Source: Omnitrophica bacterium GWA2_41_15 (lineage in GTDB: Bacteria > Omnitrophota > Gorgyraeia > Gygaellales > Profunditerraquicolaceae). Taken from it: a stretch of DNA of 64,000 nucleotides. The position numbers were made by a program, and so were the translations under genes. The stretch spans positions 38,499 to 102,498 of the forward strand of contig CAKKQB010000028.1 in assembly GCA_919901915.1 (NCBI GenBank), given 5' to 3'. Position 1 is the first letter of the stretch, and each line of letters begins with the position of its first letter. The notes beneath the pieces were generated by a model. The model was not told the DNA's origin, searched no databases, and saw only the letters and a list, made by a program, of their open reading frames with translations. Of the stretch, positions 5,099 through 52,320 are shown piece by piece.

Positions 5099-7462
5099 TT
5101 ATAATTTACGTGCTATTTTCTCAATCTCAAACGCCTCAATCACATCGCCTTCCAAAGTCTGATCAAATCCTGCCAGGCTTATTCCACATTCAAAATCAGC
5201 AAGGATTTCGCGCGCATCGTCTTTAAACCGCTTTAACGAAGAAAGCTTACCTTCAAAAACAACCTGCCCGTTCCTTACTAAATTAATCTGGCAATTCCGG
5301 GTAATCTTACCCTTAGTAACAAAGCAACCGGCAATTGTCCCCGCTTTTGATAATTTAAAAACCTTTCTTACTTCAGCGCTGCCTGAGAAAACCTTCTTTA
5401 TTTTAGGCTCCAACATTCCCTCTAACGCTGCTTTCAGCTCATTAACCAATTCGTAAATAATATTATAAATCTTTATCTCAATCCCCTCTTTAGCCGCCTG
5501 TTTTTTGGCTAAATCATCCGCGACAACATTAAATCCCATGATAAGAGCATTCGAAGCCACGGCTAATACCACATCAGAAGTATTTATATCACCCGCGCCA
5601 GCATGTATTATATTCAATTTGATTTCCGCGGTATCTATTTTACTAAAAGTTTCTTTTATCGCCTCGAGCGAACCCTGCACATCCGTCTTAATTATCAACT
5701 TTAATTCCTGAAGCTTTCCTTCCGCTATCTGAGCATGTAAATCCTCAAGATTAATCCTTTTTACCACCTGCATATGTTGCTGTTTTTCCTTTTCTAAACG
5801 CGTAACTGCTAATTCTTTTGCCTGATTCTCGTCCTCAATTACAAAAAATTGTTCACCTGCCTGTGGGATACCAGCTATGCCTAGAACCTCAACCGCGTAA
5901 GAAGGAGGCGCGGCAGTTATAGACAGGCCGCGATCATTAAGCATTGCCCTGATTTTACCATAAAATTTTCCTACGATAATATTCTCATTTAAACGCAGTG
6001 TGCCATTTTGCACGAGAAGAGTAGCAACAGGGCCTTTTGCCGGAGTAATCTTTGCTTCTATCACTACCCCGCAGGCGGGCCTTTTGGGATTACATCTTAA
6101 TTCTAACATCTGAGCTTCCAGAAGTATCATCTCAAGCAACGCATCTATCCCTTGGCCTGTCTTTGCTGATACCGGAACAATTATAGTTTTACCACCCCAA
6201 TCTTCAGCAGTAAGATCCATCCCCGCAAGCTGTTTTTTTACCCGGTCAATATCTGCCCCTTGTTTATCAACCTTATTCATAGCTACAATTATAGGCACGC
6301 CTGCCGCGCGGGCATGGTCAACTGCCTCCTGAGTCTGAGGCATTACACCATCATCCGCGGCCACCACCAAAACTACTATATCAGTAACACCTGCTCCGCG
6401 GCTACGCATAGCAGTAAAAGCTTCATGGCCAGGCGTATCCAGAAAAGTAACTTCACCGTGTTCTAAAATAACATGGTAAGCGCCAATATGCTGCGTGATA
6501 CCACCGTGCTCGGTATCCACAACCTTGCTCTTTCTTATAATGTCTAACAAAGAAGTCTTACCGTGATCGACATGCCCCATAAAAGTCACTACTGGAAATT
6601 TATGCCGCAAATCATCAGTTGAATCTTTTATTTCATGCGCGCGCAAAACTAACTCTTCTTTATTAAGGGCCTTCTTTATTTTATATCCGTATTTCTGACA
6701 AATTTTAACCACCACAGCTTCATCCAAAACCTGATTTATGTTTGCCATAACACCCATATTCATAAGGCTCTTCATAAAACCCGATAACTTCTCCTGCAAT
6801 TTTACAGCCAAATTTTTAACAATTACAGGAAACTCTAACTCAAGTTCTTTTAATTCAACCACAGGAGCCTCGACCTTAGCTTCGACCTTGACCTCAGGCT
6901 TTATCTCAACCTTAGCCTCAACCTTAGCCTCAACCTTTACTTCCTCAACCTTAGCCTCAGGTTTTATCTCAACCTTAGCCTCAACCTTAACCTCAGGCTT
7001 AGCCTCGACCTTAGCCTCAGTCTTTACTTCCTTAACCTCAGGCTTAGCCTCGACATTAGCCTCAACCTTAGTCTCAACCTCAGCCTTTACTTCCTTAGCC
7101 TCAACCTTAGTCTCAACCTCAGCCTTTACTTCCTTAGCCTCAACCTTAGTCTCAACCCTAACCTCCGTCTCAGCCTTAACCTTAGCCTCAGCCTTAGCTA
7201 CCTCAACCTTAGCCTTAGCCTTTATTTCCTTAGCCCTTATTTCCTTAGCCTCAACCTTTACTTCCTTAATCTCAGCCTTAATCTCAGCCTTTTTAACCGG
7301 TTTAGAAACAACTATCTTCTTAATTTTAGCCGCGGCATCAGCTTTAGGTTTGATTATTTTCTTAACAATCTTCTTAATCAAATTTATCTTCGGCGTTATT
7401 TTTTTAATCTTGCCCTTTTCTTCTTCCTTAGGAACTGTTTTTTCTTTCTTAATTTTTAGCAT
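5099..7462 (-). CDS. infB: Translation initiation factor IF-2 with an expanded KVEAK low-complexity N-terminus
   Basis: G-domain motifs [17 protein letters not shown] and NKVD, followed by the IF2 C-terminal domains. The N-terminal third is a K/E/V/A tandem repeat encoded by DNA tandem repeats at 6840-7300. Confidence 0.9.
6840..7300. repeat. Coding tandem repeat ('ccttagcctcaacc'-like units) inside infB
   Basis: Direct reading shows iterated cttagcctcaacc / ctcagccttagc units. This repeat also produces the spurious plus-strand STLAST ORF at 6738..7499. Confidence 0.8.
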
Positions 7463-12219: not shown

Positions 12220-13340
12220 TTCTTCACCTGTATCCCTTCTAACAAAGCATCAACACATTTATCAAAAGAAACTTTTTTTATCAATTTGCCCTTACTAAAC
12301 AACACCCCCATCTTCTTACCAAAAGCGATCCCAATATCCGCCTGCCTTGCCTCTCCCGGGCCATTAACCTCACAGCCCATTACAGCCACTTTAATCGGTT
12401 TGCCGGTTAACCTGTTAGCCTGTTTGCCTGTTAAACGGGATAACGGGATAACGGGATAACGGGATAACGAATTTTCTAATTCTTTTATTATCTTAACTAA
12501 ATCCACCCCGCAACGGCCGCAGGTAGGACAACTTATAATCTCAGGGCCAAAACATCTCAAACCCAAAGATTCTAAAATGGCTCTGGCTGCCTTGATTTCT
12601 TGCCTTGGCTCATCAGTAAGCGATACCCTTATTGTATCACCTATTCCATCCATCAACAAAGCCCCTAACGCAATGCTGGATTTTATCCCTCCATTATACG
12701 AAGCGCCTGTCGCGGTAAGGCCTAAATGTAAAGGATAGTCGCTTAGCTTAGCTATTTTACGATACGCCTCTACAGTATCTAAAATATCCGACCCCTTAAG
12801 AGAAATAACAATATCGTGGAATTTAAATCTTTCTAAAATTTTTACATAATCTAACGCGCTTTTAACCATTTTATCCGCTTGTGACCGGCAAACCAGCAAA
12901 CCGGCTAACCGGCTAACCGATAACGATCCCGAATTCACCCCCACCCTTATAGGAATATGGTTAATTTTCGCTGCCCTAACTATTTCTTTAATCTGATCTT
13001 GCTTATAAATATTTCCGGGATTCAACCTAATTTTATCCGCGCCATTATCAATTGCCTCCAGCGCCAAACGCCAATTAAAATGAATATCCGCGGCTATCGG
13101 CAATTTTACCTTTAGTTTAATTCTTTTAATTGCCCGCGCGTCAAGGCTGTCTTTTATTGCTAAACGGACTATTTCACAACCAGCGCTTTCTAATTCTTTA
13201 AGCTGTCTAACTGTCTTTTCTATATCAGAAGTTTTGACCTTAGCCATTGACTGAATAGCAATGGGGTTCGCGCCGCCAATTTCTATATTACCAATTTTTA
13301 TAATTCTGGATTTGCGTCTTTTAATTACCATAAACACCAC
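12216..13340 (-). CDS. ispG: 4-hydroxy-3-methylbut-2-enyl diphosphate synthase IspG (GcpE), with two in-frame repeat insertions
   Basis: N-terminal TIM-barrel domain and a C-terminal 4Fe-4S domain (CPTCGRC). Insert peptides SRLTGKQANRLTGKP and SVSRLAGLLVCRSQ are encoded by ccggtta-type hairpin repeats at 12396-12469 and 12885-12925. Confidence 0.9.
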   Translation of the reverse strand: MVFMVIKRRKSRIIKIGNIEIGGANPIAIQSMAKVKTSDIEKTVRQLKELESAGCEIVRLAIKDSLDARAIKRIKLKVKLPIAADIHFNWRLALEAIDNGADKIRLNPGNIYKQDQIKEIVRAAKINHIPIRVGVNSGSLSVSRLAGLLVCRSQADKMVKSALDYVKILERFKFHDIVISLKGSDILDTVEAYRKIAKLSDYPLHLGLTATGASYNGGIKSSIALGALLMDGIGDTIRVSLTDEPRQEIKAARAILESLGLRCFGPEIISCPTCGRCGVDLVKIIKELENSLSRYPVIPLSRLTGKQANRLTGKPIKVAVMGCEVNGPGEARQADIGIAFGKKMGVLFSKGKLIKKVSFDKCVDALLEGIQVKK

Positions 13341-15597: not shown

Positions 15598-15665
15598 ACT
15601 AATACTTTAGCGTATAGCGTATAGTTTTTCTATCCGCTATCCGCTATACGCTCAGCCTCTTACAT

Positions 15666-17196: not shown

Positions 17197-17197
17197 G

Positions 17198-17253
17198 TTT
17201 TAGCGGATAGCGGATAGCGGCTAGCGTATAGTTTTTCTATCCGCTATCCGCTT
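17198..17253. repeat. Heptamer-tandem hairpin (gcggata)n ... (tatccgc)n; one example of a pervasive family
   Basis: tttagcggatagcggatagcggctagcgtatagtttttctatccgctatccgc. More than 20 family members with different heptamer units sit at gene boundaries and inside genes. The coordinates are given in the findings. Confidence 0.85.
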
Positions 17254-17254
17254 C

Positions 17255-24551: not shown

Positions 24552-26291
24552 CTACTGCTTCTTTATAATCTTCCTCAATTCCTCCTTCGACGGCACGGCT
24601 TTTGTGGAAAATATTTCCTGATTATCCACAAGATACGCCGGGCCAAACATAACTCTTAGTTCTCTGTTAAGTTCGATATTCTTCCTTAAAAGATTTTTCC
24701 CTTCACTGCCCCTGGCGCACGCCTTTACCTCACTTAAATCCATACCGGCTCCGATACAATCATCCCACCAGGAACTTTTAGAATTTTGCGCCCGGCAACT
24801 TATGTAATTCCAAAACCTTTGCGGATAATACTTCTGTACGCATACCGCGCGTAAACACTCTTCAGTCTCAAAAGCGCCTCTTTGCGCGTCAAATCCATTT
24901 TCATTTTCAACCGCCAGAAAATGAATCTGGGGATCAAACTCCCTTGCTGTATCTAATAATCCCGCGGCATCTTCATCAAATAAACTTATAAATAAATCTA
25001 ATTTTTTATTTATTTTTAACCTGCTGATAAATTGGGAAATACCGCTGAATTCCGGCTTCAACATATAAAAATCGCCTTTTACCTCTAAATTACGTTTAAG
25101 ATCTTCAAATTTTTTCTCCTTATCAACTTCTTTACCTAAAAAATAGGCAGGCAGGCTTGATATAGAAAATTTCTTAATAAGGTCCTGCGCCTTTTCCCCG
25201 GGATAATATTCATAAGAAACAATTAAATTGGGGAAATCCCTTTTTAAGGCTTTAATCGGTGTTTGCGTATCGCATACCCTGCAATTCTTTGGGGTAATAA
25301 TCAAAAGATTAACCTTACCTGATTCTTCAAATGAACAACGAGAATCTAATTTCCCCGGATTATGGCACGTTCCAGCAAGGCCATCTTTCTTACAATTGGT
25401 ATCCTGAAAACAACGCGGCAATAAAGAAAGAACCTCTGGATCATCCTGTATTTTGTCCGAAAGACGCAGAGTTTCTATCTCATATTTTACTAGCTTATTA
25501 TCCTTTAAAGTAATGGTTGCCCTGCCTAACCTGCGCCCCTGCCAAGAGCTCCTTAAAAATAACGTATTAGCTATTTTTTCAAAAGAAGAAATCCCCTCTT
25601 CTTTTGAAAAAGAATCCTGTAAAATAACGATATCTACGCCTTTCACAGCGCTAATCAAATCAAGAGTGTCCTTCTGGGGCAAATAACTTAAAAGCACAAT
25701 AATATTAACAGGAATTTTTTTTAATTCTTCAACTGATTTTTTAAGCGCTATAATTGGCTCGATAATTTTGGAGCCCTCCAGCTTCTGCCTCGCGTAAGGA
25801 TCAGTTATCCCGACAATCCCGACTTTTATGTTTAAAATTTGTTTTATAATATAGGGTTTCACAAAAGGAAACTCATCCGTAGAAATATTGCTTGATAAAA
25901 AAACTAATTTTGTTTTGGCGGCATTATCCTGAAAAAAACTCCTGCCAAGATTAAACTCATCACTGCCGATATTCAAGGCATCATATTTCATCAATTCCAT
26001 TGCCCTAAGGTTGATGAGCGACCTCTCCGAGTCAAATTGCGTATTCTGCGTCCACTCATCCAAAAGGCCGCCGGCAAAGAAACCGCCGGAATCCAAAAGC
26101 AGGCTTTGAGGATATTTTTTCTTAATCTGCTTAATTAAACTTGCTCTGCGGCTAATACCGCCATCAATCTCTTTCGGACAGCTACAGGGATAAAGCATAG
26201 CGTGGGTGGAACCGGTATAAAGGATAGTAATTTCTTCAGCAAAACAAGTAAACATAAAACCATAAATACAAAATGCAAAAACGCAAATCAA
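24552..26291 (-). CDS. Exported hypothetical protein with a metallophosphatase-like N-domain and a Cys-rich C-domain; start is uncertain
   Basis: Signal-peptide-like ICVFAFCIYGFMFTCFA. The N-domain resembles 5'-nucleotidase but lacks the canonical metal-binding motifs. The ORF-track N-terminus at 26414 translates gcggatagcg/ctacgct repeats and is spurious. Confidence 0.4.
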   Translation of the reverse strand: MICVFAFCIYGFMFTCFAEEITILYTGSTHAMLYPCSCPKEIDGGISRRASLIKQIKKKYPQSLLLDSGGFFAGGLLDEWTQNTQFDSERSLINLRAMELMKYDALNIGSDEFNLGRSFFQDNAAKTKLVFLSSNISTDEFPFVKPYIIKQILNIKVGIVGITDPYARQKLEGSKIIEPIIALKKSVEELKKIPVNIIVLLSYLPQKDTLDLISAVKGVDIVILQDSFSKEEGISSFEKIANTLFLRSSWQGRRLGRATITLKDNKLVKYEIETLRLSDKIQDDPEVLSLLPRCFQDTNCKKDGLAGTCHNPGKLDSRCSFEESGKVNLLIITPKNCRVCDTQTPIKALKRDFPNLIVSYEYYPGEKAQDLIKKFSISSLPAYFLGKEVDKEKKFEDLKRNLEVKGDFYMLKPEFSGISQFISRLKINKKLDLFISLFDEDAAGLLDTAREFDPQIHFLAVENENGFDAQRGAFETEECLRAVCVQKYYPQRFWNYISCRAQNSKSSWWDDCIGAGMDLSEVKACARGSEGKNLLRKNIELNRELRVMFGPAYLVDNQEIFSTKAVPSKEELRKIIKKQ

Positions 26292-26410
26292 TGTTTTAGC
26301 GTTTAGCGGATAGCGTTTAGCGGATAGTTTATCATGTCCTATACGCTCTACGCTATGCGCTCTACGCTCATCTTGCTCTACGTTATACGCTTGACATTTG
26401 AATCTCTTTA

Positions 26411-28006
26411 TCATAGCCTTATCCCCTTCACTGATAAAATATTTTCTATTTTTTTTATCTCTTCCAAGATTTTCGCTGAAACAGGAGTATCCACATTTAA
26501 AACGCTTATTGCTTTTCCACCGGGCGCCTCGCGGCCAAAGGTCATAGCCGCAATATTAATATTGTATTTGCCTAAAAACATTCCCAGATTTCCGATAATA
26601 CCCGGCCTATCCCAATTCTCCACAAAAATCAAATCCCCCATAGGAATCACTTCAACATAATACTCATCAATCTTTACAATGCGCGGCTGTTTATTGGAAG
26701 AAAGGGTGCCTAAAATTCTCCTGGTTTCCTTATCGGTCTTAAGCTCCAATTGAATCAGGTTTACAAATTCCTCTTCCTTTGAAGATTTTGCCTCATTGAT
26801 TTTAATACCTCTTTCTTTAGCTAACGCCAAAGCATTGATAGAATTAACTGTCTCGCCAAGTATAGGAGTAAGCAATCCTTTAACCAAAGCTAATGTCAGA
26901 GGCGTTAAATTATGCCGGCTGATATCGCCGCTATAAATTATATTTAATTCTTTTAACCTGCCCTCAATTAGTTGACAGCTGAATAAGCCTGTCTTCTCTG
27001 CCAGATTAATATACGGCTCAATAGCCTTATACGCCTCTGGTTCCACGCAGGGGTAATTGGCGGCATTCTGAATACCTTTGCCTAAAAGCGCGTCAGAGAC
27101 AATATGTGCCACTTCGATTGCCACATTAACCTGCGCTTCTTCCGTGGAAGCGCCCAAATGAGGGGTGAGGATAACATTATTTAATTTTAAAAGCTCGCTG
27201 TCAGCCAAAAGCGGCTCATTCTCAAAAACATCCAAAGCAGCGCCGGAAACCTTACCTTCTTTAACCGCCTTAACAAGCGCCGCCTCATCAACAATACCGC
27301 CCCGGGCGCAATTAATTACGCGCACGCCTTTTTTCATAATCGCGAACTGTCCATCTGATATCATATGCTTAGTCTCGCTGGAAAGCGGCACGTGAACCGT
27401 AATGTAATCAACCCGCTGAAACAGCTCTTCTAATTCCACTACCTCTACCCCAATGCCTTGCGCGACTTCAAGCGACAAATACGGGTCGAATGCTAAAATC
27501 TTCATCCCGAATGATTTAGCCCTTTTAGCCACTTCTGTGCCAATCCTTCCCAATCCAACGATACCCAATATTTTACCATAAAGTTCAACACCCATAAACT
27601 TAGAACGTTTCCACTCGCCTAATTTTACCGAAGCATTTGCTTGGGGAATGCTCCTGGAAAGCGACAAAATCATACTCATTGTATGCTCGGCTGTAGAAAT
27701 AGTGTTACCCGCGGGCGTATTCATCACGATTATACCCTTTTGCGTAGCTGCCTCTAAATCCACATTATCTAATCCCACGCCGGCGCGGCCTATTACTTTC
27801 AGCCTGTCTGAAGCGCCAATAATATCCTTAGTTACCTTGGTAGCGCTTCTTACCACTAAAGCATCGTAATCTTTAATTATCTCTTTTAACATTTCCGGCT
27901 TTAAGTCTGTCTTCACATCAACCTGAAATTCTTTCACGTCTCTAAAAATTTTCAATCCCTCTTCTGATAACGCATCGCTAACTAATATTTTTTTCATTTT
28001 ACGCAC
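26411..28006 (-). CDS. serA: D-3-phosphoglycerate dehydrogenase with a C-terminal ACT domain
   Basis: 2-hydroxyacid dehydrogenase NAD-binding motif GIVGLGRIG, catalytic R/E/H residues, and ASB plus ACT C-terminal domains; 531 aa. Confidence 0.9.
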   Translation of the reverse strand: MRKMKKILVSDALSEEGLKIFRDVKEFQVDVKTDLKPEMLKEIIKDYDALVVRSATKVTKDIIGASDRLKVIGRAGVGLDNVDLEAATQKGIIVMNTPAGNTISTAEHTMSMILSLSRSIPQANASVKLGEWKRSKFMGVELYGKILGIVGLGRIGTEVAKRAKSFGMKILAFDPYLSLEVAQGIGVEVVELEELFQRVDYITVHVPLSSETKHMISDGQFAIMKKGVRVINCARGGIVDEAALVKAVKEGKVSGAALDVFENEPLLADSELLKLNNVILTPHLGASTEEAQVNVAIEVAHIVSDALLGKGIQNAANYPCVEPEAYKAIEPYINLAEKTGLFSCQLIEGRLKELNIIYSGDISRHNLTPLTLALVKGLLTPILGETVNSINALALAKERGIKINEAKSSKEEEFVNLIQLELKTDKETRRILGTLSSNKQPRIVKIDEYYVEVIPMGDLIFVENWDRPGIIGNLGMFLGKYNINIAAMTFGREAPGGKAISVLNVDTPVSAKILEEIKKIENILSVKGIRL

Positions 28007-28043
28007 CTCCTGATAGTTTTAATAACAATTCCCTCCCCCTTGT

Positions 28044-33519: not shown

Positions 33520-34242
33520 CTACATCCTAAATTTCTCGCCCAAATATACTGAACGAGCCTGCGGATTATTAACCAATTCTTCTGATGTCCCGGAAATCAA
33601 AATTCTGCCTTCAGCAATTAAATACGCCCTGTCAGTTATAGAAAGTGTCTCCCGGACATTATGGTCAGTGAGTAAAATCCCCAGGCCTTTTTTCCTTAGT
33701 TCCCTGATAATCTCCTGCGCCTCACTAACCACAATCGGGTCTATACCTGAAAACGGCTCATCTAAAAGTATGAACGAAGGGTTTGTCACTAACGCGCGCG
33801 TTATCTCAAGGCGCCTTCTTTCCCCTCCCGATAATGTATAAGCCTTACTTTTAGCAAGATGCGAAATATTTAATTCTTCCAACAGATAAGCGAGCCTCCT
33901 GTTTCTTTCAGCCTTACTTATAGATAGGGTCTCTAATATCGCCATAATATTTTCTTCCACGGTAAGTTTTCGAAATACAGAAGGCTCCTGTGAAAGATAA
34001 CCTATACCATAACGGGCACGCTCATGAATAGGCAGTGCCGTTATATCATTATTATCAAAAATTATTTTCCCGCGATTAGGCGCGATTACACCCACCACCA
34101 TATAAAACGTTGTAGTTTTTCCCGCGCCATTAGGCCCTAACAGGCCCACAATCTCACCGCGCAAAACCTGCATATTCACGCCCTTGACAACTTCCCTTCC
34201 ATCATAGGACTTAGCTAAATCTTTAATTTCCAATAAATGCAT
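33520..34242 (-). CDS. lptB: LPS export ABC transporter ATP-binding protein
   Basis: Walker [10 protein letters not shown], the ABC signature LSGGERRR and Walker B ILLDEP; 240 aa. Sits in the kdsD-kdsC-lptC/A-lptB synteny. Confidence 0.85.
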
Positions 34243-35275
34243 TTTTAGCGTCCTCTGTTGAATTTATAATTAACTTAGGCCTTCCAGTAAGAACAATCTT
34301 TTTATCTGAAGCGGTATAAAGCGCTTCTTCGCTGTAAGAAACATTTTCCCCGCGAGAAATCTTTACATTTCCCTTCGCGATAATCTTGTCTATTTGGCTT
34401 CCTATGGATTTCGGCCCTTGCTTTAATTCACCAGTAGGGACAGCGCAGTGCGCTGTCCCTACAGCTGTCCCTACGTTATCTTTGTGTTCCCTACCGGTCC
34501 GAATAAAATAGACATCCATTTTATCGCTCGAGATTTCAGATCCCTGCTGGCTGACTTTAACATTATTGCTAAATTGAGCGATATTTTTTTCATAATCTAC
34601 CTCAAGCGGGCCATCGCAGGTAATGATTATTTTTTCTTGTGATTTTACGCCTAAAAGCCCTTCTTTCTGAACAGGCTCAATGTCTAACCGCACATCGCGT
34701 TCTAAGGCAATCTGTTTTAAATCAGACTGCCCCTTTACCCCTGTCGCCGTCACAGTCATATTATCTCTTTTTATATTTACCGGATCACCTGTTGTAACAA
34801 CCCCGCCTTTTCTATCCCAATCCAAAGAATCAGTAGTTAGTTTTGTGCCGCCGGAAGTAGTAATAACAACATCCTGCTTTAGATTAACCTTACCATTTTC
34901 TTTATTGAAATCGCCTTTTTTAGCGCTAAGCCGAATATCTTCTCCTTTTCCATAAAAATTACCCACCACACTATCAAGCTTTACCTGCGATTGAAAAATA
35001 TCGGCTGTTTTAGCGCGAAGATCCCATTCCTTTTTACCTTTTTCTCCCTGGCCAGCAACGCTAAAATCATTAATCTGCTGATCTGCTTCAATAGATGACT
35101 GTTCAGCGGCAAATGAGAAATTATAAATACCAAAACATAAATAACAAAATAAACATAAAGCGTAAAATAAGCTCGTATCTCGTGAATCGTATCTCGTGAA
35201 TCGTTTCCCAACGAGATACGAGATACAAGATACAAAATACGAGATACGAACGACGATTCCTATTCTAAATATCAT
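34223..35275 (-). CDS. OstA-like LptA/LptC-family periplasmic LPS transport protein; start is uncertain
   Basis: Beta-jellyroll OstA-like repeats with the pattern K.N.....NV.......I..D. Lies between kdsC and lptB as in the canonical operon. The N-terminal ~35 codons translate the heptamer repeat at 35172-35260. Confidence 0.55.
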
Positions 35276-42344: not shown

Positions 42345-42462
42345 TTGATGGAATAATGATTAATAATGGTTAGCAAGGGTTAATTTTGTTAACCTCTATT
42401 AACTTTTTATTAACTGCTATTAACCCTATATAATTCTTATTTCACATTCGCGGTAATCCAAT

Positions 42463-43482: not shown

Positions 43483-43496
43483 ACAACGAAAATTTG

Positions 43497-44618
43497 TTAT
43501 TTCACAACAATCTCTAGATATACCTTTTCTGTTTCAAAAACCATTTTTTCCTGCGAAAAATTCTCTTTGATAAAAGTTTTGGCATTACCCGCTAAATACT
43601 CTCTCTTGGGCGCGGAATTCAATAATTCTAAAATCGCCGCGGCTAAAGCGCCTGAATCAGCAGATTTTACTAACAGGCCGCTATATCCATCTTTTATTAA
43701 ACTTCGTATGCCTCCGACATTTGAACCAATACAAGCCTTGGCTTGCGCCATTGCCTCCATTAAGGCTAGACCCAAGCCCTCTTTCAAAGAAGGCATCACA
43801 AAAATATCCATAACTGACAACACTTCTCTCGTATCGCTAACCCCGGGCAAAAAATATGTATTTTTTTCAATTCCCAAAACTTTAACTAAATTTACCAACT
43901 CTTCTTTCATCTTGCCTTTACCAACAATAAATAACTGCGCTTGGCTAACAGCGCCTAAAACAATTTTCATTGCCCGAATAAGATAAATATGGCCTTTTAC
44001 ATCACTTAGCCTTGCCACAATACCAATCACCGGCCCATCACTTAGGCCAAAACCCTTCTTTCTCTGTTCTCTGTTCTCCCTGTCCCGAGCGAAGTCGAGG
44101 GATGTTCTCTGTTCTCCGAATTTATTAACATCTATCCCATTATGTATAACAACTATATTTTTCTTATCCACCTTAAAATCTTTAATCAAATGTTCTTCTA
44201 CTTGTTCGCTTATAGCAATTGTCTTTTGCCCCCAACAGGGAAAAAGCCAACGCGAAAATCTTGTCATAAAAAATCCATGGCCAGTCGAAATATAAGGAAT
44301 ACCCGTTTTCCTGCTTAACCAGCATCCTAAAACCTGCGTTGTGCGGCTATTCGCATGCATGATACTTATCTGATTCTGCTTTAAGAATCGCTTTAATCTA
44401 AAATAACTCAATAACATTTTGGGACTCGCCTCTGACTTTGTCCTAATGGGAATGTGGATATAATTTATCCCCTCTTCAATAAATCTTCCAAGAAGATCCC
44501 CCCCGCTTGAGGCGACATAAACATTGTGGCCGCGTTTTTTAAGGCCTGTAGCCAGAGACAAAACATAACTGGTTATCCCGCCGATATTGAGATGATTGGT
44601 GATAAATAGGATGTTCAT
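43497..44618 (-). CDS. GT4 family glycosyltransferase with an in-frame repeat insertion
   Basis: GT-B fold with the E..EAMA motif (GLALMEAMAQAKAC). The insert QRTSLDFARDRENREQRK is encoded by the agaacag heptamer hairpin at 44061-44120. Confidence 0.8.
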   Translation of the reverse strand: MNILFITNHLNIGGITSYVLSLATGLKKRGHNVYVASSGGDLLGRFIEEGINYIHIPIRTKSEASPKMLLSYFRLKRFLKQNQISIMHANSRTTQVLGCWLSRKTGIPYISTGHGFFMTRFSRWLFPCWGQKTIAISEQVEEHLIKDFKVDKKNIVVIHNGIDVNKFGEQRTSLDFARDRENREQRKKGFGLSDGPVIGIVARLSDVKGHIYLIRAMKIVLGAVSQAQLFIVGKGKMKEELVNLVKVLGIEKNTYFLPGVSDTREVLSVMDIFVMPSLKEGLGLALMEAMAQAKACIGSNVGGIRSLIKDGYSGLLVKSADSGALAAAILELLNSAPKREYLAGNAKTFIKENFSQEKMVFETEKVYLEIVVK

Positions 44619-44621
44619 TTT

Positions 44622-46727
44622 TTACTTCAATAATTTCTCTACCGCCTCTATTACCTCCTGCGGCGTAATCAGCTCCATACATTTGCGGCTTTTACACTTT
44701 GATTTATAGCATGGGCCGCAGACTAAATCTTTTTTTATCACCACACATCCTTTCACAGGCGCAAGATGCCGCCGAGGGTCAGTAGGGCCAAAAAGCGCGA
44801 CGAAAGGGGTGTTTACCGCTGTAGCGATATGCAAGGGACTAGAATCGCCAGACACAAACACACTACATCTTTTAATCAGGCATGCCAACTGATTAATTGT
44901 GGTTTTACCGCATGTATTGATAAGCTTTGTATTCTTGACTGAATTTAACAATGCTTGCGCTACAGCGCTATCTTTCTCTGTTCCGGTAAGCACAACCCGC
45001 ATATCCTTAGAGCCTAATTCCTCGCAAAATTTAACCATATATTTAAAAGGCCAATTTTTAGTTTGCCACCTGACGCTCGCGCTTATGTTTAACCCAACTA
45101 TTTTCGCTTTAGCGCTTAACCACTGGCTGTTTAATAATTCATCTATATACTGGCCATCTTCAACCGAAGGCCAAAGCTCTAAACGCGGGTCATTCAAATC
45201 TATACCCAACATCTTCAATATTCTAAATTGATGCGAAACCGGATCAATAGAAGGCCTGCCATCCTCAATCCGATGATTAAGCAAATTGCCAAATTTTTTA
45301 TTGTCATATCCATACCGATCCAACGCTAAGCTCAATCCGGCTAACATATGAGATTTACGGTTATTCTGCAAATCAATAACAATATCAAAATTCTTTTTTC
45401 TTAAAACTTCTGCCAACCGCCAATACCCTCCCGGCCCCTTATCTTTACCTTTAAAATCAACAACCAATAATTCATCTATATAAGGAGACGCCAAAAGCGC
45501 GTCCTTTGAATCATTTGAAACTAATAAACTAATTTTATAGTCTTTTTTTCCGCCTTTAGCGAAAAACTTTTCCTTAATCGCCTTTAACGCGGCAGTAGAA
45601 AGTATGATATCGCCTAAAGAACTAAATTTAATAATCAGAATCTTAAAATTACTTAAAGCATCCTCATAGACACCAAGGGTATTTTTTACCATAAGCTCAA
45701 CATTATACTTGTCCTTTACTTTTTTATATGCTTTTTCCGCCAGATTACGCGCGAAAAGCGCATCCTTAAAAATTCTTATCGCTGCCTCAGCGATCCTTGC
45801 CGGATCAGACGGCGGAACAATCAAGCCCGTTTCTTCATTTTCAATAATATCAACTACTCCTCCCACCCGCGTGGCAACCACAGGCACGCCTGAAGCCTGC
45901 GCCTCTATAATCACCCTGCCAAACGCTTCATGAGTAGTAGTAGCAAGTACAAGGAGATCCAAATGCGATAAAATCCCCGGTATATCCCGCTGTGTGCCTA
46001 AAAAATTAGTGCGCGACGTTTGCCCCAGCCTCTTAACCAAGCCTCTAATTTCTTCCTTATAGGCCTCCTTAGATGCAGGCGCGTCACCAACTATCCAAAC
46101 CTTTAAATTTGGCACAACCTCTCCTACTTTAGCCATGGCCTTAATAAAATCCAAATGTCCCTTAAGAGGCGTAATCCTGCCGATAATCCCCACGTTAAAA
46201 TCATCTTTTCTTTTTTCTTTTGGATCAATATATCTAAATTTCTCAAGATCAACACTACGCGGAACCAGCCTTATACGTTCGCGCATAACGCCAAAATCAT
46301 CAATCATATGCCGGGCAATAACATTGCTTAAAACAATCACGCGCTTTCCCCACCCCATCACTGAACTTAAAGGATGTTTTTTATAGTAACCGTGACAGGT
46401 AGTGATAAAAATTGTTTTCGCGCGCCGGCAGGCAAAATAGGCAATCCACGCCGGAACGCGTGAACGCGCGTGCACAATATCAATCTCTTCTTTTTTAATA
46501 ATTTCCACTAAGCGCGGGATTAATTTTATTATAGAAATAATGGATTTCTCATGCACCGGCAGTTTATAATGCACCGCGCCATTTGACTCGAGCTCTTTAA
46601 CTAATTCTCCGCCGCCAGACACGACAACCGCTTTATGCCCAAGTCTGATTAGATACTTGGCCAGGTCAAGGGTCCCGGTCTCTACTCCGCCGACATTAAG
46701 TTCAGGTAAAATTTGCAAAATATTCAT
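44622..46727 (-). CDS. GT4-GT9 fusion glycosyltransferase (N-terminal GT4, C-terminal heptosyltransferase-like)
   Basis: The N-terminal ~350 aa are GT4 (EAFGRVIIEAQASGVPVVA). The C-terminal ~340 aa are GT9 (SGDSSPLHIATAVNTPFVALFGPTDP). Confidence 0.75.
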   Translation of the reverse strand: MNILQILPELNVGGVETGTLDLAKYLIRLGHKAVVVSGGGELVKELESNGAVHYKLPVHEKSIISIIKLIPRLVEIIKKEEIDIVHARSRVPAWIAYFACRRAKTIFITTCHGYYKKHPLSSVMGWGKRVIVLSNVIARHMIDDFGVMRERIRLVPRSVDLEKFRYIDPKEKRKDDFNVGIIGRITPLKGHLDFIKAMAKVGEVVPNLKVWIVGDAPASKEAYKEEIRGLVKRLGQTSRTNFLGTQRDIPGILSHLDLLVLATTTHEAFGRVIIEAQASGVPVVATRVGGVVDIIENEETGLIVPPSDPARIAEAAIRIFKDALFARNLAEKAYKKVKDKYNVELMVKNTLGVYEDALSNFKILIIKFSSLGDIILSTAALKAIKEKFFAKGGKKDYKISLLVSNDSKDALLASPYIDELLVVDFKGKDKGPGGYWRLAEVLRKKNFDIVIDLQNNRKSHMLAGLSLALDRYGYDNKKFGNLLNHRIEDGRPSIDPVSHQFRILKMLGIDLNDPRLELWPSVEDGQYIDELLNSQWLSAKAKIVGLNISASVRWQTKNWPFKYMVKFCEELGSKDMRVVLTGTEKDSAVAQALLNSVKNTKLINTCGKTTINQLACLIKRCSVFVSGDSSPLHIATAVNTPFVALFGPTDPRRHLAPVKGCVVIKKDLVCGPCYKSKCKSRKCMELITPQEVIEAVEKLLK

Positions 46728-46798
46728 AATACAAAACCTCTTAATTTGTAATTTCTATTATAATTGGTTAACGCTGAAAAACCCTCATTATAAGCTAA

Positions 46799-48748
46799 TT
46801 ACATTATCCTCTTTACCGCTTCAACTACCAAAAGATTATCCTTAGGCGTATAAATCGAAGGATTCGTTCGCCAGATATGATCAATTTTTTTACCTAATTC
46901 CAAAATATCAACTAAATAAATATATTTGTTTCTGGCAAAATAATCAAGGAATCTTTTATGCTTCCCGTCTAATCCGGACGACTTAAAAACAAACGTATAT
47001 TTATTACTGCTTACTGCCTCTGAAACCATGGACAAACTGTCAGGAGAAGTTACAATAATTTTACTCAAACCAAGTATCCCTCCCACAGCCTCCGGAACAT
47101 TCTTTTCATTAGCTACAATTAGCATTTTACAACGTGGATAATCTCTGAACTCCTCTTTAACCAAAGCCTCTACTTCTTTTGAACTACGCCTTGAAGTTGT
47201 AATCAGAATACCTGCGTTCAAACTTTCAGATACTGCTTTTACCTGCTTAATCACCCCTAAAACCGTGTCTTTGTTAAGAGTGAAATTTTTCGTATCTCCC
47301 CCGATTAATAAACCAATGTAAAATCCAGTATTGCGTATTGCGTATTGCGTATTGCGTATTAACTTATCCGTCTCTTCTTTTAAATAAACCTCATCTATTA
47401 AATTCAGCGCTCCCTCGGTCACTACGACATTTTTTCTCTTCGGCGGGCAATCGTGTTTAGGCATTATTACCAGATCAAATCTTTTCATGCTTAATACAGA
47501 CGGCCGCATAACTACTATTGACTTAGCCATGTTTTCTCTGGCTAATATAAAATTAATCGGAGCCGCGCTTGCGCCGCAAGAAATTATTATATCGGGCTTC
47601 GCGCTTATTAAGCCATCATAAACATCACTTTTAAGAAAACTCTTCAAGCACCCTGAACAGCCCTGGCAATTATATTTACCTGCCAAAAAACTACTAAAAA
47701 TAAGCGCGTATTTAGAAAAATTGTTTTTAAATCTTATTTCTTTACTTTCAATTTTCGCCTCAATTCCCCTCTCCTTTAAAACATCACTAACGAGCCTCGC
47801 TACGCCTTGCGCCTGCCGGACATGCCCGGCTTTCGCGTCATTTAAAAGCAAAATACTTTTCTCTTTCGTATACTTCCATATTTTATAAGTCCAAAAAAGT
47901 TCTTTAGGGTATTTAAAAATATATTTTTCATAAACCCCAACCAGCCTTTGTAGATTGCTCTGAATATCTTTATCCGAATCGGCGCTCTTTTTGATTTCAA
48001 ATGCCGGCTCAATAAAAACCTTTGTAAACGGCCCTTTTACCCGCGTATAAAAAACCGGAATAATCGCGGCATCATACCTTAGCCCCAACTTCAACGCGCC
48101 GGTTGCCATAGAAGCGTATTGGCCGAAAAACTTAACCAAAACGCCGTTTTTACCGCCTTGGTCCATAGTCATACCAACCGCGCAATTATCTCCAAGCGCT
48201 TCAATTAATTGGCGTATACCGCCTTTTCTATAAATCACTTTAGAGCCTTTTAATCCACGGTATGAATTGAGCAGTTTATTCAGGCGGGGATATTTTTGCC
48301 CTTGCACGAATACAACATAAGGAAATCCAAGGTTAGCGCCGATAATATTAGAAAGCTCCCAACTGCCTTCGTGAACCACTAAAAGAATTACGCCTTTCCC
48401 TTTCTTAAAACCGGCAGAAATATTTTCCAATCCCTCGAAAGCCACATATTTATCTAAATATTTTTTATCCACCAAAGGGACAAGAAATACCTCTATCAAA
48501 TTCTGTCCAAATGCCCGATAAAATTCCTTGGTTATCCGGAATAATTCAGATGGCGGCTTCTCCTGTCCGAAGGCTGTTTTTATATTAGAATAGGCAACCG
48601 CCCTATGCCTAACATCAAAACAAAAAAGAAAATCACCCAGCCTTCTTCCCAGAAAAAAGCTAAAATTTTTAGGCAAGCATCTAATAAAAGAACCAACCGC
48701 CCTAAAAAGAATACAGCCCCAATAATCTATTATAGAATTCTTGTTCAT
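46799..48748 (-). CDS. Lipid A biosynthesis acyltransferase (LpxL/HtrB family) fused to a ~350-aa C-terminal domain of unknown function
   Basis: N-terminal LPLAT domain with the HEGSWE (H-x-N/S-WE) motif. An in-frame repeat insert NTQYAIRNTQYAIRNT is encoded by the gcgtatt heptamers at 47335-47363. Confidence 0.6.
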   Translation of the reverse strand: MNKNSIIDYWGCILFRAVGSFIRCLPKNFSFFLGRRLGDFLFCFDVRHRAVAYSNIKTAFGQEKPPSELFRITKEFYRAFGQNLIEVFLVPLVDKKYLDKYVAFEGLENISAGFKKGKGVILLVVHEGSWELSNIIGANLGFPYVVFVQGQKYPRLNKLLNSYRGLKGSKVIYRKGGIRQLIEALGDNCAVGMTMDQGGKNGVLVKFFGQYASMATGALKLGLRYDAAIIPVFYTRVKGPFTKVFIEPAFEIKKSADSDKDIQSNLQRLVGVYEKYIFKYPKELFWTYKIWKYTKEKSILLLNDAKAGHVRQAQGVARLVSDVLKERGIEAKIESKEIRFKNNFSKYALIFSSFLAGKYNCQGCSGCLKSFLKSDVYDGLISAKPDIIISCGASAAPINFILARENMAKSIVVMRPSVLSMKRFDLVIMPKHDCPPKRKNVVVTEGALNLIDEVYLKEETDKLIRNTQYAIRNTGFYIGLLIGGDTKNFTLNKDTVLGVIKQVKAVSESLNAGILITTSRRSSKEVEALVKEEFRDYPRCKMLIVANEKNVPEAVGGILGLSKIIVTSPDSLSMVSEAVSSNKYTFVFKSSGLDGKHKRFLDYFARNKYIYLVDILELGKKIDHIWRTNPSIYTPKDNLLVVEAVKRIM

Positions 48749-49796
48749 TTTTTATGATTGTTAATTCGATACGCAAGACTAAAATTCGTGAAGCGTGAGG
48801 CGTGAAGCGTGAAGCGTAAAGCCGCGCCGCGTCCTTTTCTGTGGTGATAATTGTGTCTATACCCTTATCAACAGAATCTTTGATAATTTTATCTATATCT
48901 GTCTTGATGTAATTATGGTGGTCGGGAAATTTAAAAGATAAGCCTATTTTAGCGCCGAGTGAAATAATCAAATTTTCAAAGGAATCGGGGTCTCCTATGC
49001 CGCAAAATATACTTACGCGCTTATCCTTAAGTATATCTGTCCCAAATAATTCAGCGCTTTTTTCAAGATTATATAATCCTATGGGTTTATGAACACTTTC
49101 CGCGATCAATGTTTTTGGATTAATCTTACTTAAAATATCTTTAAGCTCATCCAGTTTCACCCCAAAATCAACCTTGGTCAAAAAAAAGATATCCGCGCGC
49201 CTCAAGCAAGAAAGCGGCTCGCGCAAGATCCCCCTGGGTATCATATGGCGGTTACCAAAGGGATTAACAGCATCAATAGTTACAATCTCTAAATCTTTTT
49301 TAAGCCTCCACTGCTGAAAGCCATCATCCAACATAACCGTATCCACGCCATAATCTTTAAGCGCTCTTTTTGCCGCCCTAATTCTATCCGCATCCACAAT
49401 TACCGGAATATCGTTTAATTTTTTAGAAAGCATGTAGGGCTCATCGCCCATGGTTTCATAGCGGATAGCGGATAGCGCCTGCCTGCCGGCAAGGCAGGGA
49501 TAGCGGATAGATTTTCTTTTATAACCGCGGGTTAATATTGCGACTTTGCGGCCTTCCTGTTTTAAATACCTCGCGATAACTTCAACTAAAGAGGTTTTTC
49601 CTGTCCCGCCTACGGTAATATTACCCACGCTGATGACTTTAACATTCAGGCGATTCTGCCTAAGGAAACAAAAAAAGATTAAACCCCTGATTACTAATCC
49701 ATAAATAAGGGAGATAAGAAATAGGAAACCTTTTACAATAGCCGGGCCAATTCCCTTATATTTATCTGTAGCTAAATTATAAAGATACTTTTTCAT
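48702..49796 (-). CDS. lpxK: Tetraacyldisaccharide 4'-kinase
   Basis: P-loop GNITVGGTGKT. Two in-frame repeat inserts: SIRYPCLAGRQALSAIRY (49459-49510) and RFTPHASR (48786-48823). Confidence 0.85.
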   Translation of the reverse strand: MKKYLYNLATDKYKGIGPAIVKGFLFLISLIYGLVIRGLIFFCFLRQNRLNVKVISVGNITVGGTGKTSLVEVIARYLKQEGRKVAILTRGYKRKSIRYPCLAGRQALSAIRYETMGDEPYMLSKKLNDIPVIVDADRIRAAKRALKDYGVDTVMLDDGFQQWRLKKDLEIVTIDAVNPFGNRHMIPRGILREPLSCLRRADIFFLTKVDFGVKLDELKDILSKINPKTLIAESVHKPIGLYNLEKSAELFGTDILKDKRVSIFCGIGDPDSFENLIISLGAKIGLSFKFPDHHNYIKTDIDKIIKDSVDKGIDTIITTEKDAARLYASRFTPHASRILVLRIELTIIKNEQEFYNRLLGLYSF

Positions 49797-50084
49797 ATAT
49801 TCTGTATCTTATCACACCGAGAGACTCCTGACAACATTTTATTGTAACCTAATCGTAGCCAAATTCAACCGCAAGATCGAATCAATTAATCTCCGATGAC
49901 AAATCAAAGCAAGCGCTTTCTTTTAGAGCTGATTTAGCCTTGTTTTTACCCAATTCATAGTGTATACTTTAAGTATAAATACGTATATCGTATCCATGAT
50001 TTTCACTACGCGGTAGAACCTTCAGCAAAAGCTTTCAGCTTAAAGCTTAAAGCTTTTGCTGACAGCTGATAGCTGATAGCTAAA

Positions 50085-50249
50085 ATGCGCAAACTTATAA
50101 TTTTAATTATCCTTATTACCTTTTCCTTCACCTCCTTAGGCTTCCCCCCAGGTTCTGCCTTCCCTTCCTGTCATTCCTGCGAAAGCAGGAATCCAGTCTC
50201 AACCCTTACTTCGTTACCTAAGCGTCAACTCTGCCAATCCCCGTAATTA
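50085..50249 (+). CDS. Signal-peptide-encoding 5' segment, probably the frameshifted start of the long ORF 50497..52320
   Basis: MRKLIILIILITFSFTSLG, then a C6 tract at 50144-50149. Removing one C joins this frame to the ~120 codons that run stop-free (from 50141, no ATG) into the 607-aa ORF. Confidence 0.45.
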
Positions 50250-50496
50250 TTTTAATTTCCTCTTAGATGAAGGAGGCTATCAGCCTTCAGCTGAAAGCCG
50301 AAAGCTGATAACTGACAGCTTAACAGATGAAGCCAAAAAACTCATCCATTATTTTTTCCTCGGCATTACCCTACCCTCAACCGCGTTCTGGGTAAACCTA
50401 CAACCAACTCAATCAGACAGAATTACCTCAGATGAACTCTCTAAGACTGATTTAGGCAGAACCCTGTTAGAGCAAGACTTACAACTTAAGAAAGAT

Positions 50497-52320
50497 ATGG
50501 CTAATTATTTGCATCCCAAGAATCCCGTAGGCAAACTCTATTGGGAAAAACTCTATTCTGCAATCGGCAAAGAAAAAGCCAAGAAAGCTAAAATTACTAC
50601 CTCAAATCGTGTCTGGATTACTCCGAATCAAGCAGTGGTTATGGAAACTGAAGACGGAGCCTTGGTTGCTAAGGCAACCCTAAAAGTAATGTTGGAGAAC
50701 GAATATCTGAGTAACCAGACACCTCCGCGGTGGCCGAAGGCCTCCGCGGAGGTGGAAGCGGTTAAGAATGAGCAAACCCAACAACTCAGCGAGCAACTAA
50801 TGAAAGAAATCATCATTCCTGCAATAACTAAGGACATCAACGAAAGCCCACGCTATGCGCCCTTGCGCCAGGTTTATTACTCTTTAATATTAGCAGAGTG
50901 GTATAAGAGAAAAGTTAGCCGAAAGCTGACAGTTGATAACCCATCCCCTTACGCCCCCTATATTAACTCCGGCACAACCGCCGGTTTGGAATCCGAAGTC
51001 CCTTGGAAAAAGCAAGCAATCTGGCAGGAATACCTAAAAAGCTACCAACAAGGCGAATACAAACTTCAGGATACGCTTTTTGGCCTAAAGAGGATGTATT
51101 TTAGCGGGGGGATAATAATTGAGTTAGGCAATACCCCTACTTTAACATCTATCACTCAAAAAAAATTATTAAATAATCCCGATTTAGCAAAGGGGTTAAG
51201 CATTTCAAAGAATCCTAATGAAGCACTTGTTATAGTAAATACTATTTTGGAAGATAATAAGCAAATCGCCAGCTCGTCTATGGATGGTCAATCTAATGAT
51301 CGATCTTTGGTTTATGAGCAGTGTTCTTTTGATTTTATAAAAGATGAAAGGAAAAAAGTTTTAGACATTCAAGCTGAAACTTTATTCAAAGAAATGGATG
51401 AATTGCAACAAAGAATAAATGCGCTTAATATTGTTAGCGACCTTTCCAAATTAGTTTGTAATGAAGATACACTTATTCGTAAAATTGGTGGAATTCTCTC
51501 TTCCTTTAAAAATTTAAAACAAAAAGTAGGCGCATCTAAGGAAAGTCTTTCATATGAAAGACTTAATAATAGGCTAAAAGAATTGGAAGAGTTACTATTT
51601 GAAAGATGTTATTTTTCAGTTTTGAAAGATTTGGAGAAAGAAAGATATAATGAGATTAGGTATGTTCAGAAGTTTTTGACGCTAAGATTATGTAGGGAAT
51701 CTTTAAATCTTATTGATTCTTTCATTAAGCATTTCCCGGATTTAAGCAAAGAAGAGCGAAAAAAATACTTATGGAATACTGAACTGCAGGTAGCTAACGT
51801 CCTTATACGGGATGATCTTTTTAGGGGAATAACGGCAAAGAATGATATTGCATGGATTAAAGATATGATGATAAAGGGTAAATTTCTTAGTGTCGCACCT
51901 CCTTTAAATAACTGTTGGTTATCGGCAAATTATTTTTATTCAACATTTAGATATAATGATGAATCTCCGCGAGCAAAATTGCTTTGTATCTTAGATGCTT
52001 TCCGAATATATGGGCATGTTTTAGCAGAGGAAGAATACTTCTCCGAATCGGAAGAGGAAAAATACTCCGACGCATCGGGATGGAGAAGCTGTTTAGAGGG
52101 TGACTTAGAAGATATCCTTAGTTCTTTAGATACAAAAGAATTTTATCAGATATCATCTTTGTCTAAGTTAGTTTCCTTAATTAAAAAAGAATTGAAAATC
52201 AAGAAGAACCCTTTGCTTAAGTTATTTAGAAAAAGTTTGTTTCAAAACGATGAAATAAAAGAATGTATTACTGAAATTGCCCTTTATTTTTTAAGGCAAA
52301 AAAAGGCATCGTATCCATAA
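50497..52320 (+). CDS. Large hypothetical protein, 607 aa as tracked; about 727 aa if joined to the upstream signal peptide
   Basis: No recognisable domains and a central coiled-coil-like region. The upstream in-frame extension is open and includes a translated gtcattcctgcgaaagcaggaatcc element (VIPAKAGIQ). Confidence 0.5.
   Translation: MANYLHPKNPVGKLYWEKLYSAIGKEKAKKAKITTSNRVWITPNQAVVMETEDGALVAKATLKVMLENEYLSNQTPPRWPKASAEVEAVKNEQTQQLSEQLMKEIIIPAITKDINESPRYAPLRQVYYSLILAEWYKRKVSRKLTVDNPSPYAPYINSGTTAGLESEVPWKKQAIWQEYLKSYQQGEYKLQDTLFGLKRMYFSGGIIIELGNTPTLTSITQKKLLNNPDLAKGLSISKNPNEALVIVNTILEDNKQIASSSMDGQSNDRSLVYEQCSFDFIKDERKKVLDIQAETLFKEMDELQQRINALNIVSDLSKLVCNEDTLIRKIGGILSSFKNLKQKVGASKESLSYERLNNRLKELEELLFERCYFSVLKDLEKERYNEIRYVQKFLTLRLCRESLNLIDSFIKHFPDLSKEERKKYLWNTELQVANVLIRDDLFRGITAKNDIAWIKDMMIKGKFLSVAPPLNNCWLSANYFYSTFRYNDESPRAKLLCILDAFRIYGHVLAEEEYFSESEEEKYSDASGWRSCLEGDLEDILSSLDTKEFYQISSLSKLVSLIKKELKIKKNPLLKLFRKSLFQNDEIKECITEIALYFLRQKKASYP

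Follow-up and report, generated by a model that had tools for sequence, protein, structure and literature searches.

Within a window of 64,000 nucleotides from Omnitrophica bacterium GWA2_41_15 (contig CAKKQB010000028.1, positions 38,499 to 102,498 of the forward strand; by window we mean this whole stretch of DNA), the lpxK gene contains two in-frame segments built of tandemly repeated heptanucleotides, one of them divided by a 21-nt GC-rich near-palindrome. Lying on the minus strand at 48702..49796, the gene codes for 364 aa and is intact, as judged from the list of open reading frames (ORFs), Pfam, phmmer and an AlphaFold2 (AF2) model submitted to Foldseek; its 3' end overlaps the start of an lpxL-ELM1 fusion gene by 47 nt. 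The Pfam family PF02606 (LpxK) matches over profile positions 4-324 of 328 (E 1.6e-81, 274.4 bits against a cut-off of 27), and phmmer aligns the protein with Aquifex LpxK 4EHW at E 4.9e-37. The AF2 model, made from a 40-sequence alignment, has a mean predicted local distance difference test score (pLDDT) of 79.5 and displays the two-domain LpxK fold, its top Foldseek match being Aquifex LpxK 4EHY (E 8.7e-23, template modelling (TM) scores 0.66/0.77).

The P-loop GGTGKTS (49590..49610, minus strand) occupies residues 63-69, of which G63, G64, T65, G66, K67 and T68 are invariant in the alignment of orthologues, together with R90 G91 Y92, G117 D118 E119 and the Walker B residues D157 D158. By alignment R90 is equivalent to R72 of the Aquifex enzyme, which binds the lipid substrate, and D118/E119 to its catalytic D99/E100 (reviewed in PMC6286764). 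The window gene encodes a full-length LpxK with all the key residues of the family. Its closest homologues, 59-72% identical, are all annotated Candidatus Omnitrophota, and the identical protein is recorded on three contigs from other assemblies, with no polymorphism among them. An Rfam scan of 48500-50500 returned sub-threshold chance matches only and no known RNA family.

Two LpxK loops coded by heptanucleotide arrays

The first segment, site 1, is the loop KSIRYPCLAGRQALSAIRYET (49452..49514, minus strand; aa 95-115), set between RGYKR and MGDEP. Along 49458-49510 the DNA reads, in frame, (ATAGCGG)x2.9, CCTGCCTGCCGGCAAGGCAGG and GATAGCGGATAG. The first half of the array (49458..49477, minus strand) was detected by Tandem Repeats Finder (TRF) as ATAGCGG on the + strand, that is, CTATCCG/CCGCTAT on the coding strand; the 21-nt near-palindrome, hereafter the core, to which no strand is assigned, occupies 49478..49498 (a boundary movable by 1 nt) and accounts for 7 additional residues; the other half (49499..49510, minus strand) falls into phase with 49458-49477 when the core is taken out. 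Site 2 is the loop ARLYASRFTPHASRILVL (48774..48827, minus strand; aa 324-341), between TTEKDA and RIEL. Its array (48787..48822, minus strand) is (CGTGAAG)x5.1 on the + strand and CTTCACG on the coding strand, with a TRF score of 58, 89% matches and a lag-7 identity of 0.68 against 0.28 for the background of the gene.

An initial annotation of this DNA had singled out two repeat-derived segments in LpxK, and both stand in frame where it had put them, far above what shuffled sequence would give. Allowing at most two mismatches, GCGGATAGCGGATA occurs 19 times in the window for 0.42 expected, and the CGTGAAG dimer five times for 0.20 expected, neither count being reached by any shuffle. The annotation had further understood the site-1 insert as a complete hairpin with gcggata arms, which has to be abandoned. 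The gcggata flanks of the core both lie on the + strand and are therefore direct repeats, unable to pair; the 69-nt segment folds no better than its shuffles (z -0.46 for the mRNA strand, +0.82 for the other strand), and within it pairing is limited to a stem of about 6 bp in the core, which as an element has a stem of 6-8 bp and a loop of 5-7 nt. The flanks are the two halves of one array, divided by the core.

In their coding orientation both units are free of stop codons in all frames, and the opposite orientation has stops (TAG in the site-1 unit), as expected if purifying selection acted on orientation. In the AF2 model, residues 92-114 at site 1 have pLDDT <50 and form a beta-hairpin excursion; the site-2 loop runs between a helix (320-328) and a strand (338-349). 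Because the ends of site 1 adjoin the lipid-binding arginine and the catalytic Asp/Glu, the loop must exit and re-enter at one spot, as a hairpin excursion does.

Loop length and periodicity among orthologues

The loops were compared in 35 orthologous loci at the DNA level and in 120 homologues at the protein level. At site 1, 64 of 115 proteins have 14 aa, others having 7 aa (n=7), 21-23 aa (n=17), 28-29 aa (n=3) or 4-5 aa (n=7); the lengths cluster at 7, 14, 21 and 28 aa, and a step of 7 aa is 21 nt, or three heptamers. At site 2, 85 of 108 proteins have 18 aa, nine have 25-28 aa and one has 11 aa. Nucleotide identity at lag 7 is at least 0.6 in 10 of 29 segments at site 1 and 5 of 32 at site 2, compared with 1.6% of all 42-nt windows of lpxK, and the other lags remain at background. 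In many orthologues the 42 nt of site 1 are a near-perfect heptamer array with a unit that differs from genome to genome (CAATACG, AATTACC, AACTTCG, ACGAACG, GATTACG, CAGCAAT); one locus (L099) uses an 8-mer unit and has a loop of 15 aa. The feature is not peculiar to this gene or genome: most close orthologues bear arrays, with or without cores, at both lpxK sites, each with its own unit, and IspG and LpxL-ELM1 have analogous ones.

None of 32 full-length genes (31 ortholog loci and the window gene, all taken from consensus assemblies) is out of frame at either array, and the same architecture, always in frame, is met across independent JGI, ENA, NCBI and Logan assemblies. Orthologues at about 50% identity have loops of equal length without periodicity. 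Since length is the same in these non-repetitive orthologues, the arrays represent no net insertion; to judge from the alignments, they fill or replace loops that were there before.

For comparison we used as outgroup the 66 LpxK genes of other phyla among the matches listed, mostly Verrucomicrobiota and other relatives in the Planctomycetes-Verrucomicrobia-Chlamydiae (PVC) group. Their site-1 loop is non-periodic and mostly 34-42 aa long, and most of them place a VVSDG..LL beta-hairpin between RGY and GDEP. This hairpin is absent from LpxK of the Omnitrophota clade, where a 14-aa repeat loop stands in its place; it does not define the family, and Aquifex LpxK has 21 residues at site 1. The repeat peptides of the window protein, which the initial annotation expected to be missing from distant taxa, occur in none of the 66 genes. 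Site 1 is thus a shortened, derived loop that took the place of a conserved beta-hairpin. It also appears dispensable, given that seven orthologues cut it down to 4-5 aa and that the model assigns it pLDDT below 50.

The 21-nt core as an insertion

The core behaves differently from the arrays. In the window gene and in five other instances, all excision lengths from 15 to 26 nt were tried, and in six of six it is the removal of 21 nt alone that restores the phase of the array, bringing the loop back to 42/45 nt at site 1 or to 54 nt at site 2. In the window, what remains is a continuous 42-nt (CTATCCG)n array encoding KSIRYPLSAIRYET. The core is the sole net insertion in the loops of window LpxK (+7 aa), so that of the two in-frame insertions initially proposed one survives as a true insertion, reduced to these 21 nt, and the heptamer arrays proper are instead occupants of loops of conserved length. 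No target duplication is visible at the core insertions.

The family has the consensus CCTGCCTG-NCCGN-CAGGCAGG. The identical 21-mer is found on the + strand, non-coding for lpxK, in the window and on the lpxK coding strand in locus L125, hence in opposite orientations, and again within the LpxL-ELM1 loop of L089, a locus where a core is nested in a core at two places (lpxK site 1 and position 7480). Among relatives, two LpxK proteins that are 96% identical (P0023 and P0047) differ by a 14-aa core-bearing insert, which concerns their copies and not that of the window. Other small palindromes, CCCCGCCGTAGGCGGG and TCCGCCTTTGGCGGA, sit in a like position in L086 and L128. That the GC core might be a multi-copy element of the window was considered and rejected: it is present in a single copy in the 64 kb.

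As a separate observation, L125 carries at 9091-9927 a TnpB-like gene (Cas12f1-like_TNB domain) directly upstream of its lpxK, which has a core at both sites; a link between the two is not established.

Differences between closely related strains

Proteins sharing 93-98% identity elsewhere may differ completely in their loops. One pair of loci, L127 and L128, shares 98-100% identity along most of 3.5 kb, apart chiefly from the two lpxK loops and a set of indels; a few other 50-nt windows drop to an identity of 0.8-0.9. At site 1 all five units are CTTACAA in one locus and GTCACAA in the other; the 30 nt upstream hold seven differences, all synonymous, and identity resumes right after the array. 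At site 2 the divergent patch extends over about 130 nt. A like pattern is seen at site 2 between L081 and L086 (95% nucleotide identity). The synonymous changes flanking the loops indicate that entire loop cassettes came in from diverged alleles, through homologous recombination of short patches.

The same pair differs by four presence/absence indels of 39-75 nt (alignment columns 234-308, 1587-1634, 2754-2792 and 2865-2906). The 75-nt one is intergenic, those of 48 nt and 39 nt are in frame in lpxL-ELM1, and the remaining one is a 42-nt duplication; three of the four are in frame within lpxL-ELM1. The 39-nt insert carries a palindrome, CCCCGCCGTAGGCGGGG, that also occurs in site 2 of lpxK in L086 and is different from the GC core.

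Certain units are common to several loci and genomes beyond chance: AGCGGAT three times in the window, and AATACGC five times in four genomes, at sites in lpxK, in lpxL-ELM1 and at one intergenic position. The unit of lpxK site 2 in L086 is that found in lpxL-ELM1 of its close relative L081.

The same elements elsewhere in the window and in the lineage

The window holds 14 strict arrays of 7-nt units and six of 8-nt units, built from GCGGATA, CGTGAAG, GTATTGC and others; the list that gives them has three further rows of low complexity. Arrays of period 7 reach 1.49 per 10 kb in the Omnitrophota loci against 0.29 in other phyla, a five-fold difference, and periods 5 and 6 are not enriched. Beyond lpxK, the window has in-frame arrays in lpxL-ELM1, in the linker joining two glycosyltransferase (GT) domains of a GT9-GT9 fusion, in a GT4 gene, in kdtA and in ispG. 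In lpxL-ELM1, (GTATTGC)x4.7 (47328..47360, minus strand) encodes in frame the peptide NTQYAIRNT at aa 466, and in orthologues (L081, L088, L089) the corresponding loop bears arrays or nested cores. In ispG/gcpE, two in-frame 8-nt arrays (12403..12469, minus strand) encode LSRYPVIPLSRLTGKQANRLTGK, and a third array lies at 12896-12919. Across the clade, IspG homologues show at two loops periodic peptides such as RLSTIDHRLSTRP, KLSAIRYPLSAKP and AIRNTQYAIR, and at the same two loops PAGRQ-type core peptides, STIDYPLPAGRQGLST; one of them (P0215) has IRYPCLSGRQALSA, which is nearly the LpxK peptide of the window. Loop arrays, present in IspG as well as in LpxL-ELM1, are therefore a trait of the whole lineage and not one of lipopolysaccharide (LPS) genes alone.

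When units face each other they do form hairpins. An inverted pair of TAGCGGA/CTATCCG units (17201..17252, no strand assigned) makes an intergenic inverted repeat between co-directional genes, and the RNA of 17195-17260 folds at -29.9 kcal/mol (z -6.9), a sister copy at 15600-15660 having z -4.5. The two hairpins (15606-15652 and 17201-17252) share an identical 29-nt centre, GCGTATAGTTTTTCTATCCGCTATCCGCT, and are therefore copies of one heptamer-built hairpin element; each nearly fills the spacer between its co-directional genes. A 14-nt unit made of two alternating heptamers, CTATCCGCTAAACG, is present x2.2 at 9035-9067 and at 26295-26327, in opposite orientations.

Several peptides that the initial annotation had attributed to the gcggata family could be located. 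FRYPPNTIRS (aa 344) belongs to the linker that joins the halves of the 710-aa GT9-GT9 fusion, and the false N-terminal peptide of ORF 24552..26414 falls within the first 40 codons. The sequence proposed upstream of purA cannot encode such a peptide: the array at 9035-9067 is oppositely oriented, and on the purA strand stop codons interrupt each of its three frames.

Origin of the arrays

We propose, with a probability of roughly 0.7, that the two LpxK segments are dispensable surface loops coded by heptanucleotide arrays, that site 1 has in addition received a 21-nt palindromic insert, that all this is tolerated, and that we are witnessing an Omnitrophota counterpart of the heptamer repeats of cyanobacteria. 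Seven not being divisible by 3, the units of an array pass through each of the reading frames, and the gene stays in frame only when their number changes by three (21 nt, 7 aa). The length classes and the perfect arrays suggest that the arrays turn over by replication slippage in such three-unit steps; exchange between arrays, within one genome or between strains, would fit the shared units. The core would be a very small, dispersed hairpin element, inserted with precision and with no duplication of the target, adding exactly seven codons and moving as a hairpin. The peptides would be tolerated and not used, since site 1 makes a hairpin excursion held at one end beside the arginine of RGY and at the other beside the Asp/Glu of GDEP. 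The same process would operate in IspG, LpxL-ELM1, KdtA and the glycosyltransferases, and as inverted arrays it would also produce the stable intergenic hairpins.

Several observations fit this proposal poorly. No slippage event has been directly seen, and the replacements between close strains resemble allelic recombination. No enzyme able to move the 21-mer has been identified, the ORFs of the window not having been scanned for Y1 transposases. The pattern CCTGCCTGCCGGNNAGGCAGG is present in 37 viral stretches of IMG/VR (L129-L165), mostly high-GC (61-69%) phage loci, often several times on a contig and at homologous sites of related phages, and in none of them within a heptamer array; strict arrays were not found in the low-GC viral contigs with the 21-mer either. 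The palindrome is therefore not exclusive to Omnitrophota, its recurrence is no proof of mobility, and this recurrence could in part be convergence of (CCTG)n/(CAGG)n simple sequence. Finally, in most ortholog loci the strict arrays within about 11 kb are confined to lpxK, and in the window those inside coding sequences are concentrated in LPS genes; the persistence of arrays in lpxK is not obviously predicted by pure neutrality and is not fully explained.

It is conceivable, and we put it forward as a tentative idea, that an active process specific to Omnitrophota and independent of the cyanobacterial one acts on certain protein loops, both seeding and homogenizing 7-nt arrays together with 21-nt palindromes. 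Were this the case, the loops of LpxK, IspG and LpxL would be hypervariable cassettes swapped by short-patch recombination, diversifying selection or a function at the DNA or RNA level would become possible, and the 21-mer would, cyanobacteria apart, be one of the smallest known mobile elements.

Repeats whose length is not a multiple of three bring to mind contingency loci, the main competing explanation, in which slipped-strand mispairing would be selected for switching lpxK and its LPS neighbours on and off, as it does with neuO, where 7-nt units also lie inside the coding sequence (PMC13001214). Of the six genes of the window that contain an array, five are LPS genes (lpxK, lpxL-ELM1, the GT9 fusion, GT4 and kdtA), and arrays of five perfect units persist in many lineages. 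We nevertheless consider this unlikely. The total lack of out-of-frame alleles among the 32 full-length lpxK genes, compared with 65.6% of neuO genomes in phase OFF, has moderate weight, as consensus assemblies would hide minority OFF alleles; to this must be added that loop lengths step by 7 aa only, that LpxK is essential in E. coli (PMC6286764), and that IspG, a housekeeping enzyme, has like arrays and cores in its loops throughout the clade.

Selection might alternatively bear on the heptad peptides themselves, as a symmetric beta-hairpin, as an interaction or regulatory loop or as the target of diversifying selection, the DNA repeats being a by-product. The hypervariability of loops between strains 93-98% identical elsewhere would be so explained, as would the fact that most of the clearly divergent patches between L127 and L128 in 3.5 kb fall on the two lpxK loops, the maintenance of 14 and 18 aa, and the position of site 1 where other phyla have their conserved VVSDG..LL hairpin. 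Selection on the protein does not, however, require a periodicity of 7 nt where 21 nt would suffice, nor does it account for the same units building non-coding intergenic hairpins, for the same peptides appearing in unrelated enzymes, or for seven orthologues living with 4-5 aa at site 1. LpxK being at the cytoplasmic face of the membrane, there should moreover be no obvious external selector, and we regard this explanation as improbable.

The picture from which the analysis started, that of an ordinary lpxK which repeat DNA had entered twice independently, once as a complete hairpin whose arms are gcggata, has become very hard to defend. It is right about the inserted GC core, and the segments are indeed missing in some orthologues (for example P0001, P0010, P0066 and P0101); it founders on flanks that are direct repeats, on a segment that folds no better than shuffles, on non-repetitive orthologues with the same loop length, and on arrays that occupy both sites in most of the clade with differing units. 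Chance similarity or an assembly artefact deserves practically no credence: short-read assemblers can mis-size repeats, but these arrays do not exceed 53 nt, below read length, the exact protein is on three contigs, the in-frame architecture recurs in JGI, ENA, NCBI and Logan assemblies, and no shuffle ever reached the observed counts. An intein, a diversity-generating retroelement or a domain insertion was also considered and dropped, the segments being 7-21 aa long, with a periodicity in their DNA and no domain matches.

Comparison with known repeat systems

The small dispersed repeats (SDRs) of Nostoc are reportedly hairpin elements of 21-27 nt, often embedded in heptamer arrays and nested in their own copies. 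The Omnitrophota core, likened to SDR1-8 by description and probably different from them in sequence, is likewise 21 nt long, able to form a hairpin, placed inside heptamer arrays, nested in itself and excisable in phase. The companion STRR (short tandemly repeated repetitive) sequences of cyanobacteria are 7-bp repeats dispersed in the genome that can form intergenic hairpins (PMC2670836), and the title of Vioque (1997), cited in PMC2858038, places such heptamers within a functional gene, rnpB. The window similarly has short 7-nt arrays at many loci together with intergenic copies that form hairpins. The differences are that the host belongs to the Omnitrophota and not to heterocyst-forming cyanobacteria, that the units (GCGGATA, CGTGAAG, GTATTGC and others) are not those of STRR1-3, and that the arrays are in frame in essential protein genes, at orthologous loops throughout the clade, with steps of 7 aa. 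We know of no report of this last arrangement in cyanobacteria. By analogy, the STRR heptamers and SDR micro-elements of Nostocaceae appear to be the closest relatives in kind of what is described here.

The neuO gene of E. coli K1 is a coding variable number tandem repeat of 7 nt that encodes heptad peptides and is in frame only if the number of units is divisible by 3 (PMC13001214). It resembles lpxK in having a 7-nt unit repeated in the coding sequence with heptad peptides as product, and differs in that neuO, a gene that is dispensable, carried by a phage and OFF in most genomes, has its 3-53 units at the 5' end, whereas Omnitrophota have 4-6 units in internal loops of essential genes, with a unit for each genome and no OFF alleles seen. 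Rickettsia palindromic elements (RPEs) are selfish palindromic DNA inserted in frame in unrelated metabolic genes, at sites compatible with fold and function (PMC10969869). The tolerated in-frame palindrome is common to both systems, but RPEs have about 150 bp, a conserved peptide and no tandem heptamers, against 21 nt for the present element. Repetitive extragenic palindromes (REPs) and the doublets they form (REPINs) are short, GC-rich, imperfect palindromes, dispersed in many copies and mobilized by REP-associated tyrosine transposases (RAYTs) (PMC3116915). The lpxK core is also a short GC-rich palindrome, and the window does hold GTAG-type doublets (7524-7616 and 20640-20718); REPs, however, are extragenic and form inverted doublets beside a RAYT gene, whereas the core is intragenic, single or nested, and lacks a GTAG head. 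A survey of the Omnitrophota (PMC10066038) mentions neither repeats nor lipid A, and our literature search found no paper linking this phylum to heptamer repeats.

If our proposal holds, non-triplet repeats can persist over the long term inside essential genes, reshaping loops in steps of 7 aa and even replacing a hairpin that other phyla conserve. Heptamer arrays with tiny palindromic inserts have so far been tied to one cyanobacterial subgroup, and meeting them in an uncultured phylum points to a shared mechanism or else to convergence. There is a lesson for annotation: arrays give rise to spurious N-terminal extensions, to seeming gene fusions and to peculiar peptides of low complexity (LPAGRQAG, SAIRYPLSAK, NTQYAIR), which should be expected again in metagenome-assembled genomes of Omnitrophota and in protein databases. 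The loops are also natural markers for strain typing and give a handle on slippage and short-patch recombination in uncultivated bacteria.

Neighbouring genes and other repeats of the window

Upstream of lpxK, and divergent from it, lies an ORF of 607 aa (50497..52320, + strand) without a Pfam match; the 700-nt spacer between the two contains heptamer arrays and a 20-nt palindrome (50021-50081). On the other side, the LPS cluster at 40212-48748 (11136-20400 in L125) is made of fused genes that relatives have kept: LpxL-ELM1 (649 aa), GT4-GT9 (701 aa) and GT9-GT9 (710 aa). The linker between the halves of the latter is a heptamer array in the window, and that of the L125 orthologue is shorter. 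LptC and LptA are fused as well (34223..35275).

The GC-rich inverted doublets at 7524-7616 and 20640-20718, GTAGGGGCGGGCTTGCCCGCCC, have arms of 25-28 nt that are 92-96% complementary and 29-37 nt apart; they are of GTAG type, resemble REPIN-type REP doublets and form a family distinct from the lpxK core. At 28043-28136 a 47-nt unit is present twice (97% matches), each copy with the palindrome ATTCCCGCGAAAGCGGGAAT. Finally, at 6866-7290 within ORF 5099..7462 (787 aa), a long, degenerate 12-nt repeat, AGCCTCAACCTT, recurs some 28 times, with 63 and 171 nt as higher-order periods, and probably encodes a repetitive protein of low complexity.

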